Sequence record: OQ031495
Reading direction: 5' to 3' (one strand)
From: Escherichia phage MRostami-2023e
DNA: 64,000 nucleotides
In this document: positions 1 to 20,958 of the stretch, piece by piece
Position numbering within the stretch: the stretch's first letter is position 1
How the letters are laid out: the number at the start of each line of letters is the position of its first letter
Program-made: the position numbers and the translations under genes
Notes under the pieces: generated by a model
What the model was told of the DNA's origin: nothing
Seen by the model: only the letters and a program-made list of their open reading frames with translations
Databases searched by the model: none

Positions 1-377
1 CTTTAGCCGTAGCTAAAGCTGAACTTGACAGAATGATCGGACGTAAATGCAACGGTACAATTACCCTTGATGAGGCCGAAAAGCTATTTAATGAAGACGT
101 TGATAAAGCCGTTCGCGGAATCTTGGGTAATGCTAAACTTAAACCGGTATATGATTCTTTAGATGCGGTTCGTCGTTGTGCATTGGTCAATATGGTCTTC
201 CAAATGGGTGTAGCAGGCGTCGCCGGTTTTACTAATTCTCTTCGTATGCTTCAACAGAAACGTTGGGATGAAGCGGCAGTAAATCTAGCCCAATCTAAAT
301 GGTATCGTCAGACACCTAATCGCGCGAAACGCGTAATCTCAACATTTAAAACAGGAACTTGGAAAGCGTATATATGA
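1..377 (+). CDS. e: Endolysin (T4-type lysozyme), 5'-partial; coding frame enters from the window edge
   Basis: Translation ...[29 protein letters not shown]...[40 protein letters not shown]...TGTWKAYI matches the C-terminal two-thirds of T4 lysozyme; stop at 375-377. Confidence 0.9.
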
Positions 378-655
378 AAACATATAGTGAATTTTTATCA
401 GAATCTATTCTTAACGAAGCTACTGACACATTTGCAACTAAGCTAGGTGCAGCTTTGGTTGAAGCCGAAAGTCTACTAGCACGTATTTCTGAACTTGCTA
501 GTAAGATAGATACTCGCAAATTTGAACGTACTAGCGATATCGCTAAGCTTGAAGCCTTGTTACGTATGTGCAATAAACCGGAAGAAATCGCTAAGAACGG
601 CTCGCTGATGAAACAACGTCTTGAAAAATATATTTCAGGCGCTTCAGAAAAATAG
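374..655 (+). CDS. Internal-protein-like head protein with N-terminal capsid-targeting sequence
   Basis: Starts [10 protein letters not shown], like the T4 IP capsid-targeting sequence MKTYQEFIAE; ATG overlaps the e stop (ATGA). Confidence 0.55.
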
Positions 656-713: not shown

Positions 714-1250
714 ATGACTCGTATCAATTTAACACTTGTTTCTGAACTGACCGACCAACATCTTATGGCTGAGTATCGTGAATTACCACGCGTATTTGGT
801 GCAGTCCGTAAACATGTTCAAAACGGTAAACGTGTAAAGGATTTTAAAATCTCTCCAACATTTATCTTAGGCACAGGTCACGTAACATTCTTTTACGACA
901 AACTTGAATTTTTACGTTTAAGACAAATCGAGCTAATCGCTGAATGTTTGAAACGTGGTTTCAAAATCAAGGACACGACAGTCCAGGATATTTCCGACAT
1001 CCCTGCCGAATTTCGTAATAATTATGTCCCGTCCGAAGCGTCCATTGCGATAAGTCAAGCACGCTTAGATGAAAAAATTGCTCAACGTCCGACTTGGTAC
1101 AAATACTATGGTAAATCAATTTACCAAGGAAAAATGAAAATGTATCAAGAATTTATCATTGAAGCAGATGCCAAAGGTCCTAAAGTAGATGTTGACGATA
1201 TTGGATACGATTTTAACAACTTCGGAATTATTTCTGGCGGTAAAGCTTAA
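714..1250 (+). CDS. denV: Endonuclease V (pyrimidine-dimer DNA glycosylase/AP lyase) with about 40-aa C-terminal extension
   Basis: [35 protein letters not shown]...[10 protein letters not shown] is near-identical to T4 DenV; SD GGAGGA at 704-709; ORF continues about 40 codons past the T4 terminus. Confidence 0.85.
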
Positions 1251-1313
1251 ATTGTTTACGCTTAAGTATTAATATGGTATAATTACTCTATCAAAACAAA
1301 CAAGGAAACAAAA

Positions 1314-1631
1314 ATGAAAACATATAAAGAATTTATCGCCGAATCTGCTGCAGGACAACGTGTAGAAGGTGGTTATATCTGGATTGAACAAGTTGAGCCG
1401 CCAAGTCGCACTTCTACAGGTAAATGGAAAATCACTGTTGATGGTCCTGGTGGTAAACGTAGGACTCTTAAAGAAATTAATGGGTACTATGAAGAAGCTC
1501 TTTCTGACGCGGGTACTTATATGATGCAAATCATGATTAAAAACCCAGAAAATCGTTTTGCGGCTAGAGTTTTCCGCCGTATTGGAAATAAGCTTTATGA
1601 TGCATATTCTAAAAACTTCCCTAAAGAATAA
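1314..1631 (+). CDS. Internal protein (IPII/IPIII-like) with capsid-targeting sequence
   Basis: Starts MKTYKEFIAE; 105 aa; sits at the T4 ipII/ipIII position next to denV. Confidence 0.6.
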   Translation: MKTYKEFIAESAAGQRVEGGYIWIEQVEPPSRTSTGKWKITVDGPGGKRRTLKEINGYYEEALSDAGTYMMQIMIKNPENRFAARVFRRIGNKLYDAYSKNFPKE

Positions 1632-2823: not shown

Positions 2824-3128
2824 TGACCACTATTGAAGTTTTTGAATATTGTTATAACAGTCCAGTATGCAATAAAAGGGCCCTTGTAGAAAATTACGAG
2901 ATTTACCATTTTAAACCTAAACGATATCGTTTGACTAAAGGTCCGTTCGCAGGGCAGCAGGTTCTTTGTACTGCTCCTAATGCACGACTGATGACTAGTA
3001 TTCCACATTTCAAAATGGAATTTATTGATGGGCCATTTAAGGGATTAATCACTCAAAGTTTAATGGCGTTTAATTCCGTCCCATTTTTGATTAAAGAAAA
3101 AACTTGGATAAATTTATTTTCTAATTGA
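2820..3128 (+). CDS. Hypothetical protein
   Basis: 102-aa ORF, start overlaps upstream stop (ATGA). Confidence 0.45.
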   Translation: MMTTIEVFEYCYNSPVCNKRALVENYEIYHFKPKRYRLTKGPFAGQQVLCTAPNARLMTSIPHFKMEFIDGPFKGLITQSLMAFNSVPFLIKEKTWINLFSN

Positions 3129-3134
3129 GGTTAT

Positions 3135-3497
3135 ATGAAAGCATATCAAATTCTTGAAGGCACACACAAAGGCACTATTTATTTTGAAGACGGTACTCAA
3201 GCCCGGATTATTGTCTCTAAGACTTTTAAAGAAGACGCTATTGTAGACCCGGAAATTTTCTACGGTTTGCATGCCCGTGAAATTGAAATTGAACATCAAC
3301 CTAAAGTTAAAATTGAAGGTGGTCAACATCTGAACGTTAACGTTCTGCGTCGTGAAACTCTGGAAGATGCAGTTAAGCATCCAGAAAAATATCCGCAGTT
3401 GACCATCCGTGTATCCGGTTATGCAGTTCGCTTTAACTCTCTGACTCCGGAACAGCAGCGCGACGTTATCGCTCGTACCTTTACTGAGAGTCTATAA
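3135..3497 (+). CDS. Autonomous glycyl-radical cofactor (GrcA/YfiD-like; T4 Y06I-type)
   Basis: C-terminal [60 protein letters not shown] carries the RVSGY glycyl-radical motif; SD GAGG upstream. Confidence 0.85.
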
Positions 3498-3977: not shown

Positions 3978-4252
3978 TGGCTNNNNNNNNNNNNNNNNNN
4001 NNNNNNNNNNNNNNNNNNNNNNNNNNNNNNNNNNNNNNNNNNNNNNNNNNNNNNNNNNNNNNNNNNNNNNNNNNNNNNNNNNNNNNNNNNNNNNNNNNNN
4101 NNNNNNNNNNNNNNNNNNNNNNNNNNNNNNNNNNNNNNNNNNNNNNNNNNNNNNNNNNNNNNNNNNNNNNNNNNNNNNNNNNNNATCAAAGAGTAGTTTA
4201 CTTCTCCTCTAGTTGTGTTACTATAGACCTGTCAACTAGAGGAGAAATCAAA

Positions 4253-5606: not shown

Positions 5607-6057
5607 AAACTATATCAAGGGCGATATTGTCGCCCTGTTTTCTAAAGGTAATAATATTGCTCATGGGTGTAATTGTTTTCATACAATGGGCGCCGGTGTA
5701 GCAGGCCAATTAGCAAAGGCTTATCCAAAAATTTTAGAAGCCGATAAACTTCAAACTGCATATGGAGACGAGTCTAAACTCGGGTCTTATTCGGTTTATG
5801 AAAAATATTTTAAGACCCATAAAGCTTATTGCTTTAATCTTTATACGCAGTTTGAGCCTGGACCTAATTTTGAGTACTCTGCTTTAATGAATTGTATAAT
5901 AGAATTAAATGAATTCGGAAAGAATAAGATAACAAAGCCTGTAATTTATATGCCAAGAATTGGTGCCGGTATTGGTGGTGGAAACTGGGATGTCATCGAA
6001 GAGATTTTAGATACGTATTCCACTAAACTAGAAATTGTGATTGTTGATTGGGAACCN
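5599..6057 (+). CDS. Macro-domain protein (TARG1/Poa1p-like), 3' end lost in masked run
   Basis: IAHGCNCFHTMGAGVAGQLAKAYP and MPRIGAGIGGGNWDV match macro-domain ADP-ribose-binding loops; start uncertain (GTG 5599 or TTG 5590). Confidence 0.55.
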
Positions 6058-6480
6058 NNNNNNNNNNNNNNNNNNNNNNNNNNNNNNNNNNNNNNNNNNN
6101 NNNNNNNNNNNNNNNNNNNNNNNNNNNNNNNNNNNNNNNNNNNNNNNNNNNNNNNNNNNNNNNNNNNNNNNNNNNNNNNNNNNNNNNNNNNNNNNNNNNN
6201 NNNNNNNNNNNNNNNNNNNNNNNNNNNNNNNNNNNNNNNNNNNNNNNNNNNNNNNNNNNNNNNNNNNNNNNNNNNNNNNNNNNNNNNNNNNNNNNNNNNN
6301 NNNNNNNNNNNNNNNNNNATGGACTGTTTTTTTTACTTTATGTAACGATGAAATGATATGTGATTTTGATTATTGGTGTTATTGCTATTGATACAATAAA
6401 GGATGTACAAATCATACAGGTGAAGGTTTCTATTCCGGGTTTCAACCGTATCCAGACTTTGTNNNNNNNNGTGAACCTAA

Positions 6481-6672: not shown

Positions 6673-7254
6673 ATGGCTAGTTTAATTTTTACATATGCCG
6701 CTATGAATGCTGGTAAGTCTGCTTCATTACTTACTGCCGCACATAACTATAAAGAACGTGGCATGGGTGTATTAGTTCTTAAACCGGCTATTGATACTCG
6801 CGATTCAAAAGGTGAAATAGTCTCTCGTATTGGTATTCGTCAGGATGCCAATATAATTACAAAAGACATGGATATCTTTGAATTCTATAAATGGGCTGCA
6901 GCACAAAAGGATATTCACTGTGTATTTGTTGACGAAGCTCAGTTCTTAACTACTGAAAAGGTGTATCAACTTAGTCGTATTGTTGACGTATACAATGTGC
7001 CGGTAATGGCATATGGACTACGAACAGATTTTAAAGGTAATCTATTTGAAGGTTCTCAAGCATTAATGGCTATTGCCGATAAGCTTGTTGAACTTAAAGG
7101 TGTCTGTCATTGTGGTAAAAAGGCCACAATGGTAGCTAGAGTCACGGAAGACGGACTTCCAATTACAGATGGCAGTCAAATTGAAATTGGTGATACCGAT
7201 AGATATGTGTCATTATGCCGGAAGCATTGGAATGATTTGACAGGGTTGTTATAA
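6673..7254 (+). CDS. tk: Thymidine kinase
   Basis: MASLIFTYAAMNAGKSASLL...VFVDEAQF...CHCGKKA... near-identical to T4 Tk; P-loop and zinc-ribbon cysteines present. Confidence 0.92.
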   Translation: MASLIFTYAAMNAGKSASLLTAAHNYKERGMGVLVLKPAIDTRDSKGEIVSRIGIRQDANIITKDMDIFEFYKWAAAQKDIHCVFVDEAQFLTTEKVYQLSRIVDVYNVPVMAYGLRTDFKGNLFEGSQALMAIADKLVELKGVCHCGKKATMVARVTEDGLPITDGSQIEIGDTDRYVSLCRKHWNDLTGLL

Positions 7255-8190: not shown

Positions 8191-8571
8191 NNNNNNNNNN
8201 NNNNNNNNNNNNNNNNNNNNNNNNNNNNNNNNNNNNNNNNNNNNNNNNNNNNNNNNNNNNNNNNNNNNNNNNNNNNNNNNNNNNNNNNNNNNNNNNNNNN
8301 NNNNNNNNNNNNNNNNNNNNNNNNNNNNNNNNNNNNNNNNNNNNNNNNNNNNNNNNNNNNNNNNNNNNNNNNNNNNNNNNNNNNNNNNNNNNNNNNNNNN
8401 NNNNNNNNNNNNNNNNNNNNNNNNNNNNNNNNNNNNNNNNNNNNNNNNNNNNNNNNNNNNNNNNNNNNNNNNNNNNNNNNNNNNNNNNNNNNNNNNNNNN
8501 NNNNNNNNNNNNNNNNNNNNNNNNNNNNNNCAAGTTGAAGAACTTTATCGACATTTAAAACACAATCGGTA

Positions 8572-14451: not shown

Positions 14452-15387
14452 ATGGCTTTTATTACACGTAAAGAACTTATCAAAGAATTTACCTCGAACG
14501 CATATACTCCAGGACCTAATCCTATCCGTATGCCTGTAAAGACTCCTGAAGAGATTGAGGAAGTCTGTTCATATTATGGGATTACTTCTCGTAAGTTTAC
14601 TCAATTTGAATGCGTTACTAACACACCCGTTAAAGAGTTCATTAAAAATGGTGAGTTCAGCCGTTTATTAGCCAAACAGAAACTTCGTAATTTTTGTATT
14701 GGCGGTGAAGGACAATATTTCGCTAAGCAGTTCCGGAATAACCTTAACAATCTGATGGCCATTGCTTCTCGTATTCGTCCTCAAGCAATTAACATGAAAC
14801 ATTTGAAATATACTTACGATAAGTTGGAAATCATGGTTATCAGTGAGAATGAGTTCACTCTTACGTATAAACCTAAGAATGATAACGTTGCTCGTGTATT
14901 TCACCAAGCGTTGGAAGTTTTAGGTGATAATATCCACCAGATTAAAGCAATTTATTCACGTGAGCTTAATATTATCAACCCCATCAAGAATAAGGGTCAT
15001 ATTGCTATCCAGGCTCGTGTATCTATTGGTAAAAAGGTTCCTGCGCCATGGTGGCACAAAGACTCTGAATACTATCAAAATCTTAAAAAGGAAAATGCAT
15101 TGTTTGAAGCATCGCTTACTGGAACCCCAATTGAACAGGCCGAAGTCCTAAGTGCTTATTCTACTTCTNNNNNNNNNNNNNNNNNNNNNNNNNNNAAACT
15201 AAAAGTTTCTAATGACCTTCTTCCGGCCGAAGATTACCATTACAATCAAATCAAGGCCACTATGGACCAACTGTCTGTTGAACTTGACAAAGCACAAGCT
15301 AAGCTTCGTGATGCTCAAAGTGTTGTAACGAATCTCCAGTTGCAGTATTCTAAACTTTTTAACGCAATGAATGCATTAAAATCATAA
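14452..15387 (+). CDS. Hypothetical protein (contains a 27-nt masked run)
   Basis: 311-aa ORF with SD GAGGA upstream. Confidence 0.5.
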   Translation: MAFITRKELIKEFTSNAYTPGPNPIRMPVKTPEEIEEVCSYYGITSRKFTQFECVTNTPVKEFIKNGEFSRLLAKQKLRNFCIGGEGQYFAKQFRNNLNNLMAIASRIRPQAINMKHLKYTYDKLEIMVISENEFTLTYKPKNDNVARVFHQALEVLGDNIHQIKAIYSRELNIINPIKNKGHIAIQARVSIGKKVPAPWWHKDSEYYQNLKKENALFEASLTGTPIEQAEVLSAYSTSXXXXXXXXXKLKVSNDLLPAEDYHYNQIKATMDQLSVELDKAQAKLRDAQSVVTNLQLQYSKLFNAMNALKS

Positions 15388-18441: not shown

Positions 18442-18640
18442 NNNNNNNNNNNNNNNNNNNNNNNNNNNNNNNNNNNNNNNNNNNNNNNNNNNNNNNNNNN
18501 NNNNNNNNNNNNNNNNNNNNNNNNNNNNNNNNNNNNNNNNNNNNNNNNNNNNNNNNNNNNNNNNNNNNNNNNNNNNNNNNNNNNNNNNNNNNNNNNNNNN
18601 NNNNNNNNNNNNNNNNNNNNNNNNNNTTAAGTTAATAAAT

Positions 18641-19144: not shown

Positions 19145-20958
19145 AAATTGAAAAAGAAATTGAAGGATTAATTCATAAAACTAATAAAGACCTTTTAAAC
19201 GAGAATGCTAATAAAGATTCTCGTGTTTTTCCAACTCAACGGGACCTTATGGCTGGTATTGTGTCTAAGCACATTGCCAAAAATATGGTCCCGTCTTTTA
19301 TTATGAATGCGCATGAAAGCGGAATCATTCACATGCATGATATTGATTATTCTCCTGCTCTTCCATTTACTAATTGCTGTTTAGTCGATTTAAAGGGGAT
19401 GCTTGAGAATGGATTTAAATTAGGCAATGCTCAAATTGAAACGCCTAAATCTATTGGCGTTGCTACTGCAATTATGGCACAAATTACCGCACAAGTTGCT
19501 TCACACCAATATGGCGGAACTACATTTGCGAATGTCGATAAAGTTCTTTCTCCTTATGTTAAACGCACATACGCTAAACATATTGAGGACGCAGAAAAAT
19601 GGCAAATCGCTGATGCGTTGAATTATGCCCAATCTAAAACAGAAAAAGACGTATACGATGCATTCCAAGCTTATGAATATGAAGTAAATACTCTCTTTAG
19701 TTCAAACGGACAGACTCCTTTTGTAACAATTACATTTGGTACAGGAACCGACTGGACTGAACGAATGATTCAGAAAGCAATTCTTAAAAACCGCATTAAA
19801 GGCCTTGGTCGTGATGGAATAACTCCTATTTTCCCTAAGCTTGTTATGTTCGTTGAAGAAGGTGTTAATCTTTATAAAGACGATCCGAACTATGATATTA
19901 AGCAGCTTGCTTTAGAATGTGCAAGCAAAAGAATGTATCCTGACATCATTTCGGCTAAGAACAATAAAGCTATCACCGGCTCATCTATTCCTGTTTCTCC
20001 AATGGGTTGCCGTAGTTTCTTGAGCGTATGGAAAGATTCAACTGGCAATGAAATTCTTGATGGACGCAATAATCTTGGCGTTGTAACACTGAATCTTCCT
20101 CGTATTGCGTTAGATTCTTATATTGGAACACAATTCAATGAACAGAAATTTGCCGAATTGTTCAATGAACGAATGGACCTGTGTTTTGAAGCTTTGATGT
20201 GTAGAATTAGTTCCTTAAAAGGAGTTAAAGCGACTGTTGCTCCTATTCTTTACCAAGAAGGTGCATTTGGGGTTCGTCTTAAACCTGACGACGATATAAT
20301 TGAGTTATTTAAAAACGGTAGAAGTTCAGTGTCTTTAGGATACATCGGTATTCATGAATTGAATATTCTTGTCGGCCGTGATATTGGACAAGAAATTTTA
20401 ACTAAAATGAATGCTCATCTTAAACAGTGGACTGAAAGAACCGGTTTTGCTTTTAGCTTGTATTCTACTCCTGCTGAAAACCTGTGCTATCGCTTCTGTA
20501 AACTTGATACTGAAAAATATGGAAGTGTAAAAGATGTTACTGATAAAGGCTGGTACACTAACAGTTTCCATGTTTCAGTAGAAGAAAATATTACTCCGTT
20601 TGAAAAGATTTATCGCGAAGCCCCATATCATTTCATTTCGNNNNNNNNNNNNNNNNNNNNNNNNNNNNNNNNNNNNNNNNNNNNNNNNNNNNNNNNNNNN
20701 NNNNNNNNNNNNNNNNNNNNNNNNNNNNNNNNNNNNNNNNNNNNNNNNNNNNNNNNNNNNNNNNNNNNNNNNNNNNNNNNNNNNNNNNNNNNNNNNNNNN
20801 NNNNNNNNNNNNNATTTGTTTGTTCTATGTGTGGAGAAACTGATCCTAAAAAGATGAACACAATAAGAAGAACGTGTGGTTATCTTGGAAACCCGAACGA
20901 ACGCGGATTTAATCTAGGCAAAAATAAAGAAATCATGCATAGGGTTAAACACCAATGA
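19141..20958 (+). CDS. nrdD: Anaerobic ribonucleoside-triphosphate reductase (class III; 173 nt masked inside)
   Basis: 605 aa; NCCLVDLKGML and C-terminal RRTCGYLG glycyl-radical motif with zinc-ribbon cysteines. Confidence 0.9.
   Translation: MKIEKEIEGLIHKTNKDLLNENANKDSRVFPTQRDLMAGIVSKHIAKNMVPSFIMNAHESGIIHMHDIDYSPALPFTNCCLVDLKGMLENGFKLGNAQIETPKSIGVATAIMAQITAQVASHQYGGTTFANVDKVLSPYVKRTYAKHIEDAEKWQIADALNYAQSKTEKDVYDAFQAYEYEVNTLFSSNGQTPFVTITFGTGTDWTERMIQKAILKNRIKGLGRDGITPIFPKLVMFVEEGVNLYKDDPNYDIKQLALECASKRMYPDIISAKNNKAITGSSIPVSPMGCRSFLSVWKDSTGNEILDGRNNLGVVTLNLPRIALDSYIGTQFNEQKFAELFNERMDLCFEALMCRISSLKGVKATVAPILYQEGAFGVRLKPDDDIIELFKNGRSSVSLGYIGIHELNILVGRDIGQEILTKMNAHLKQWTERTGFAFSLYSTPAENLCYRFCKLDTEKYGSVKDVTDKGWYTNSFHVSVEENITPFEKIYREAPYHFISXXXXXXXXXXXXXXXXXXXXXXXXXXXXXXXXXXXXXXXXXXXXXXXXXXXXXXXXXXFVCSMCGETDPKKMNTIRRTCGYLGNPNERGFNLGKNKEIMHRVKHQ

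Follow-up and report, generated by a model that had tools for sequence, protein, structure and literature searches.

An extended denV reading frame fused in frame to an internal-protein gene remnant in an Escherichia phage of the RB69 group

The denV region and its neighbours

The stretch of DNA analysed here (the window) comprises 64,000 nucleotides of Escherichia phage MRostami-2023e (OQ031495) and is assigned by megablast, among the T4-type phages, to the RB69 group (Mosigvirus). Its first 3 kb carry, in order, the 3′ end of the lysozyme gene e, an internal-protein (IP) gene of 93 aa, denV, a small ORF, an Ip10-like gene, another gene with a capsid-targeting sequence (CTS) and vs.8. The features that the argument requires are as follows.

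374..655, + strand: internal head protein gene bearing a CTS, 93 aa, upstream of denV (phrog_3499, E 5e-46)
714..1250, + strand: extended denV ORF, 178 aa, made up of DenV and a 41-aa extension; TAA stop at 1248-1250
714..1124, + strand: complete DenV domain (T4 endonuclease V, pyrimidine-dimer DNA glycosylase), residues 1-137
1125..1127, + strand: CAA (Gln138) in place of the denV TAA of relatives, T-to-C at 1125
1126..1130, + strand: AAGGA, a Shine-Dalgarno-like sequence serving the minigene, spaced 3 nt from ATG 1134 and 9 nt from ATG 1140
1134..1250, + strand: IP-like minigene of 38 aa (36 aa if started at 1140), nested in frame in the extended denV
1134..1163, + strand: CTS-like decapeptide; predicted gp21-type cleavage (I-x-E) after codon 1161-1163
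1179..1184, + strand: CCTAAA microhomology at the junction where 144 bp are deleted in frame by comparison with vB_EQ1, SA79RD and RB69
1255..1283, + strand: strong promoter-like site (TTTACG, 17-nt spacer, TG, TATAAT), 10/12 matches
1314..1631, + strand: CTS-bearing (MKTYKEFIAE) Ip10-like gene, 105 aa (phrog_3966, E 5.8e-34; annotated 'Ip10' in JS09)
from 1648, + strand: another CTS gene, N-masked from 1680 (to 2119), so that most of it is hidden

The extended ORF starts at ATG 714. Its residues 1-137 match PDB 2END end to end (E 1.8e-81) and also 1VAS (E about 1e-81), and the domain is recognized by PF03013 (Pyr_excise; 53 bits against a cut-off of 23) and by phrog_1183 (E 3.7e-62). In DenV, Thr2 supplies the α-amine nucleophile once Met has been removed, so that a free N-terminal amine is needed for catalysis; Glu23 is likewise catalytic, Arg3, Arg22, Arg26, Arg117 and Lys121 are basic DNA-binding residues and, according to mutagenesis, the WYKYY segment near the C-terminus of T4 endonuclease V has a part in dimer-specific DNA binding. 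A 31-sequence alignment shows that the window protein keeps all the family-invariant residues T2, R3, E23, R26, R117, W128 and Y129, together with the invariant M1 and the nearly invariant R22 and K121. Members of PF03013 usually measure about 137-138 aa and end shortly after WYKYY; the protein encoded here has 178 aa, the domain itself being complete. In all the sequence features tested, apart from length and terminus, the DenV half thus qualifies as a member of PF03013. The original prediction that DenV homology stops while the ORF runs on holds, the match to 2END ending at residue 137 of 178; the C-terminal extension that it described as 40 aa long is real, but measures 41 aa (Q138-A178). 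As read from the ORF alone, the product would be a protein of 20.5 kDa consisting of intact DenV, Q-G-K, the CTS-like decapeptide and a 28-aa acidic tail. The exact 178-aa protein corresponds to one entry in the public protein collection, whose source is a 169,098-bp NCBI genome.

A second intact denV copy, which would make the fused one redundant, was not found in the window by tblastn. In JS09, a second denV fragment (138 nt, JS09_060) is present at 3167-3304, downstream of ipII and at the position occupied by denV in T4, which hints that denV may have moved or been duplicated inside the IP cluster.

The tail itself belongs to a known gene. Its 38 residues match phrog_35655 over 38/38 positions (E 2.4e-30); the full-length homologue matches phrog_2667, 'internal head protein', with an E value of 1.8e-20, and the remnant does so with 3.4e-4. 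Thirty contigs carry the 36-aa protein in identical form. In relatives the minigene is annotated separately, either with 36 aa, counted from the second ATG (JS09_057, 172859UKE1_253, UGJNECP1_00032), or, in PhAPEC2, with 38 aa, counted from the first. The 38-aa IP-like minigene starting at 1134, which had been proposed as an alternative to a fusion, therefore exists in relatives as a separate gene of 36 or 38 aa, preceded by an AAGGA of its own. The same AAGGA arrangement precedes the other CTS genes. Here it overlapped the former stop codon (TAAGGA became CAAGGA by mutation) and is itself intact, so that the minigene could still be translated alone, nested within the longer ORF. We consider that it probably is also translated in this way.

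The capsid-targeting sequence of T4 IPII and IPIII is MKTYQEFIAE. The decapeptide of the window, which corresponds to residues 141-150 of the 178-aa fusion and would be N-terminal in the 38-aa product if ATG 1134 is the start, shares 8/10 residues with it, including Y4, F7, I8 and E10. In the six-frame translation of the 64-kb window, the pattern MK.Y.EF[ILVMF].[ED] occurs at four sites (374, 1134, 1314 and 1648), all on the + strand and all in this cluster; the likeness is therefore one of homology and not of chance, and the embedded CTS-like motif of the original prediction is upheld, its pattern being found otherwise in the flanking IP genes alone. Within the CTS, Y4 and F7 are reported to matter for targeting, I8 and E10 for processing (PMC9026906). 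With e on one side and vs.8 on the other, in a cluster that holds three further CTS genes, the minigene has the location of the IP class. The predicted mature 28-aa peptide has a pI of 4.3, at odds with the small basic proteins typical of this class. By motif, homology and location, the tail can accordingly be assigned to the CTS-bearing IP genes, but it is truncated and acidic, and its CTS is not N-terminal in the fusion.

The ATG of the 93-aa IP gene overlaps the TGA stop of e (ATGA, 374-377), suggesting that translation of this internal protein may be coupled to that of e. Just after the fused ORF and upstream of the next IP gene, the promoter-like site at 1255-1283 closes the denV-minigene unit; its counterpart in SA79RD bears the annotation of a T4 early/middle-type promoter. 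No terminator-like site was detected between e and this promoter-like site. A T4 late promoter near denV or the minigene was dismissed: the exact motif TATAAATA is absent from the first 7 kb of the window, the nearest copy lying at 7250, and the vicinity of the two genes contains one-mismatch variants alone. A structured RNA in or near the region was likewise dismissed, because Rfam gave no match anywhere in the window and the predicted folding of 2120-2290 was no better than that of shuffled sequence (z = 0.47). The segment preceding vs.8 (2120-2283) appears by eye richer in G+C than its surroundings and holds just a 35-aa ORF, hypothetical in vB_EQ1. The window contains eight runs of N (1680-2119, 3983-4184, 6057-6318, 6463-6470, 8191-8530, 15169-15195, 18442-18626 and 20641-20813), several of which coincide with gaps in the alignment with vB_EQ1.

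Origin and distribution of the stop-loss allele

The junction was aligned with JS09, UFV13 and SA79RD, these three and vB_EQ1 were translated across it, and RB69, 172859UKE1 and UGJNEcP1 were compared with the window segment by segment. In JS09, UFV13, SA79RD and RB69 (aligned or translated), positions equivalent to 1125-1127 read TAA between identical flanks; the junction of relatives is ...TCA ATT TAC TAA GGA AAA ATG AAA ATG..., and the window has CAA for TAA. 172859UKE1 and UGJNEcP1 agree with the window at 100% of positions between 1126 and 1253, which leaves base 1125 as the sole difference from those phages in the junction and minigene. In every relative examined, 6 nt separate the denV stop from the next ATG, in frame, and the second ATG follows at 12 nt. 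Owing to this in-frame spacer, any sense mutation of the denV stop fuses both genes. Loss of the denV stop and in-frame fusion had been predicted, with a stop codon at the canonical DenV terminus of related genomes named as refuting evidence; relatives do have that stop, and it is precisely this which demonstrates the loss. The partner in the fusion was misjudged: not the 5′ end of an IP gene but a whole minigene has been joined to denV, and this minigene is itself what a 144-bp deletion has left. Judged from these alignments, the two alternatives initially offered, a stop-loss fusion and a minigene, are both true at once.

The mutated junction CAAGGAAA (1125-1133) is identical to the leader CAAGGAAA that precedes the next IP gene (1300-1313; ATG 1314). 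As an alternative to a simple point mutation, the T-to-C change could have been introduced by gene conversion between paralogous IP leaders over a very short tract.

Comparison with full-length homologues indicates that the minigene is the remnant of an 86-aa ipII-like gene, shortened by a 144-bp in-frame deletion between CCTAAA repeats; against vB_EQ1, the BLAST pieces 1-1184 and 1179-1342 overlap by the 6 nt concerned. Full-length 86-aa forms, of the IPII type (phrog_2667), are found in RB69 (RB69ORF125c), SA79RD (SA79RD_123), vB_EQ1 and P0141-P0146. The deletion allele is common to the window, JS09, 172859UKE1 and UGJNEcP1.

The window has a sister in Escherichia phage vB_EQ1 (PQ516281.1), which is 100% identical to it over most of the first 15 kb, including 1-1184, and 99.7% identical over the remaining 42 kb (about 100 substitutions). 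The 226-aa 'endonuclease V' of vB_EQ1 (XPQ48255.1) has the same DenV sequence and the same TAA-to-CAA change, but the undeleted 86-aa ipII-like gene is kept, so that its tail measures 89 aa. The exception to the near-identity of the two genomes is the IP cassette beside denV. Where the window has the Ip10-like gene of 105 aa and another CTS gene (1314-2119), vB_EQ1 has a single 192-aa internal virion protein (2874-3460; phrog_5341). Identity between the two stops 29 nt into the CTS-coding sequence (1342/1343) and returns at 2120, a pattern that suggests cassette exchange with the conserved CTS and leader as the recombination site. No donor of the IP cassette was found among JS09, UFV13, SA79RD, 172859UKE1, UGJNEcP1 and RB69, the Ip10-like segment being just 88-93% identical.

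Outside the window genome, the CAA allele was encountered in vB_EQ1 only. The 81-nt junction matches 194 phage records, among which vB_EQ1 alone is identical to the window, and vB_EQ1 was again the one match when 50,697 phage records were searched by megablast with an allele-specific 41-mer, centred on the C so that every 28-nt seed includes it. Searches with 40-, 29- and 24-mers gave no exact match to the allele in IMG/VR, where the TAA version is present, in JGI metagenome contigs or in 185,579 GTDB genomes; as these searches require exact 24-40-mers, a stop-loss allele with a second substitution nearby would escape them. With the pattern scans empty and megablast returning vB_EQ1 alone, a wider spread of the allele was dismissed. 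Among 5.8 billion proteins, no other stop-loss fusion of DenV to an IP was returned, the sole related case being the deletion chimera P0152.

A single-base difference from almost 200 relatives might reflect an error of base calling, assembly or consensus at 1125, the true base giving TAA. However, the separately deposited vB_EQ1, set apart by its ~100 substitutions over 42 kb and by its other IP cassette, carries the same base, and its annotators called the 226-aa ORF. Position 1125, moreover, lies outside any homopolymer run. Since two distinct assemblies share the C, a random sequencing error is unlikely; it was ruled out as the main explanation, and we regard an artefact of any kind as the least probable account of the junction.

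The locus is unstable in other relatives as well. In UFV13 (about 2400-2430), a 2-bp deletion frameshifts and splits the 86-aa gene. A larger deletion, seen in P0152 (Logan contig, 54 aa), has placed the last 24 residues of the IP gene directly and in frame behind DenV residues 1-30. Shortened forms of the ipII-like gene occur in P0144, P0147 and P0149, and the downstream gene is visibly decaying in relatives. In another Logan contig, P0151 (60 aa; ~window 1070-1250), the ORF begins within the denV 3′ end, in a different frame, and enters the minigene; this implies that the A-run preceding ATG 1134 differs there in length by 1 nt, either as a real variant or through a homopolymer error.

Taken together, these observations lead us to favour, with good though incomplete confidence, a recent, lineage-specific and near-neutral stop-loss fusion of denV to an IP remnant in a plastic IP locus. 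A single T-to-C transition at 1125 would have converted TAA into CAA (Gln) in the common ancestor of the present phage and vB_EQ1, after which translation of denV would continue through the entire downstream gene, in the window as far as the stop at 1248-1250. The 144-bp in-frame deletion between CCTAAA repeats would account for the 38-aa remnant of the 86-aa gene. The fusion would then probably be a by-product of a very plastic IP locus and not an adaptation.

Probable consequences for the DenV protein

In the AlphaFold model, the DenV domain has pLDDT values of 82-98; the tail (137-178) stays below 50 and makes no confident contact with the domain. As the catalytic N-terminus and the conserved residues are untouched and the tail is modelled with low confidence and no predicted packing, DenV probably stays active. 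Natural homologues point in the same direction. Thirteen of the best 120 DenV homologues are at least 150 aa long. Unrelated natural C-terminal tails were seen in the eight that were inspected (171-242 aa, with two of 142 aa in addition); tail length ranges from 5 to about 100 residues, and several tails are acidic. A search of the literature on RB69ORF125c and on the DenV C-terminus yielded nothing directly useful.

The acidic character of the tail (pI 4.6), which begins six residues after WYKYY and is attached to a protein with a DNA-binding surface, may hint at a different outcome: by disturbing the DNA-binding segment or folding, the tail could represent a first step in the pseudogenization of denV. 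This gene is non-essential in T4, and the denV deletion in P0152, at the same locus, indicates that its loss occurs in nature. Yet the DenV part shows no other defect and all family-invariant residues are kept; homologues bear natural tails that include acidic ones, the modelled tail does not pack confidently on the domain, and Chlorella-virus cv-pdg, engineered with a C-terminal NLS tag, was expressed and purified to serve as a repair enzyme (PMC5768739). Loss of function is for these reasons held to be unlikely, though somewhat less so than the other alternatives. Since an acidic tail so near WYKYY could reduce activity, the near-neutral character of the favoured stop-loss fusion is tentative; the persistence of the allele in two genomes with different downstream cassettes is compatible with neutrality, and also with some benefit.

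Such a benefit can be imagined. The CTS-like decapeptide might send the DenV fusion into the prohead core, where cleavage by gp21 after ...EFIIE would leave DenV with 13 additional residues (150 aa) in the capsid, to be injected with the DNA; a repair enzyme would thus be at hand to incise pyrimidine dimers in the entering genome ahead of all phage gene expression. The four residues Y4, F7, I8 and E10 are all present in the decapeptide. Being small and basic (pI 9.5; 9.4 for the 150-aa product), DenV resembles typical internal proteins. Because catalysis uses the free N-terminal amine, a C-terminal CTS would be the only placement leaving the enzyme active, and this is the placement found here. 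In T4, foreign proteins enter the head by means of CTS fusions that are trimmed by gp21 (PMC3012670, PMC9026906), and a C-terminal site in Alt is processed by gp21 too (PMC9026906). The retention of the allele in two genomes with different cassettes and the lack of a terminator between the late-expressed gene e and denV would also be in line with packaging. On the other hand, the CTS is N-terminal in all CTS experiments found in the literature, and no exact late promoter (TATAAATA) is available in the first 7 kb. Two more gp21-type motifs within DenV, IAE75 and LDE120, both in modelled helices, could themselves be cut. The restriction of the allele to one shallow lineage is what a recent accident would produce, and the visible decay of the downstream gene in relatives also argues against a gain of function. 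Such a gain is accordingly considered quite improbable, and a tolerated stop-loss fusion is retained as the preferred explanation.

Significance and comparison with known systems

Read-through fusions that follow stop-loss are already known, and so is the plasticity of the IP locus. The fusion of DenV to an IP appears in GenBank just as an uncommented long 'endonuclease V', in vB_EQ1. The case illustrates how, with the tight in-frame packing of T4-type early regions, one point mutation can make a chimeric protein, and how the IP locus is reshaped by deletion, frameshift, cassette swap and stop-loss within a handful of near-identical genomes. It also has a bearing on annotation, the 178-aa and 226-aa 'endonuclease V' entries being fusions in which the nested minigene has been left unannotated.

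Residues 1-137 of the window protein align end to end with T4 endonuclease V (138 aa) and share with it Thr2, Glu23, the basic residues and WYKYY. T4 DenV and nearly all its close relatives end at residue 137/138, whereas the protein described here continues with Gln and then with unrelated residues, over a 41-aa extension. In JS09 (JS09_057), 172859UKE1 (172859UKE1_253) and UGJNEcP1 (UGJNECP1_00032), the same protein as the tail from M141 is encoded, but as a free-standing gene after the denV TAA; RB69 itself has the full-length 86-aa form (RB69ORF125c) and not the remnant. The tailed DenV homologues of jumbo and other phages (P0058, 171 aa; P0043, 179 aa; P0052, 242 aa) also have tens of extra C-terminal residues and so show that the fold tolerates tails. 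Their tails are nevertheless unrelated to the present one, lack the CTS motif and are conserved within clades (134 members for P0058), unlike a stop-loss confined to one lineage.

A parallel to the tail is found in the engineered T4 CTS fusions (Hong and Black 1993; Mullaney and Black 1996, 1998; reviewed in PMC9026906 and PMC3012670), in which, as here, an enzyme is linked to an IPII/IPIII-type decapeptide with a gp21 I-x-E site. In those constructs the CTS precedes the cargo, whereas in the window it follows the cargo and is internal. Should the fusion be packaged after all, it would constitute a natural counterpart to the T4 CTS packaging vectors made by engineering. DenV would then be the first enzyme of DNA repair known to travel as a T4-type internal protein, and it would give the first indication that a CTS can work away from the N-terminus. 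The present phage and vB_EQ1 together offer a ready natural test both of a non-N-terminal CTS and of the delivery of a repair enzyme with the DNA.
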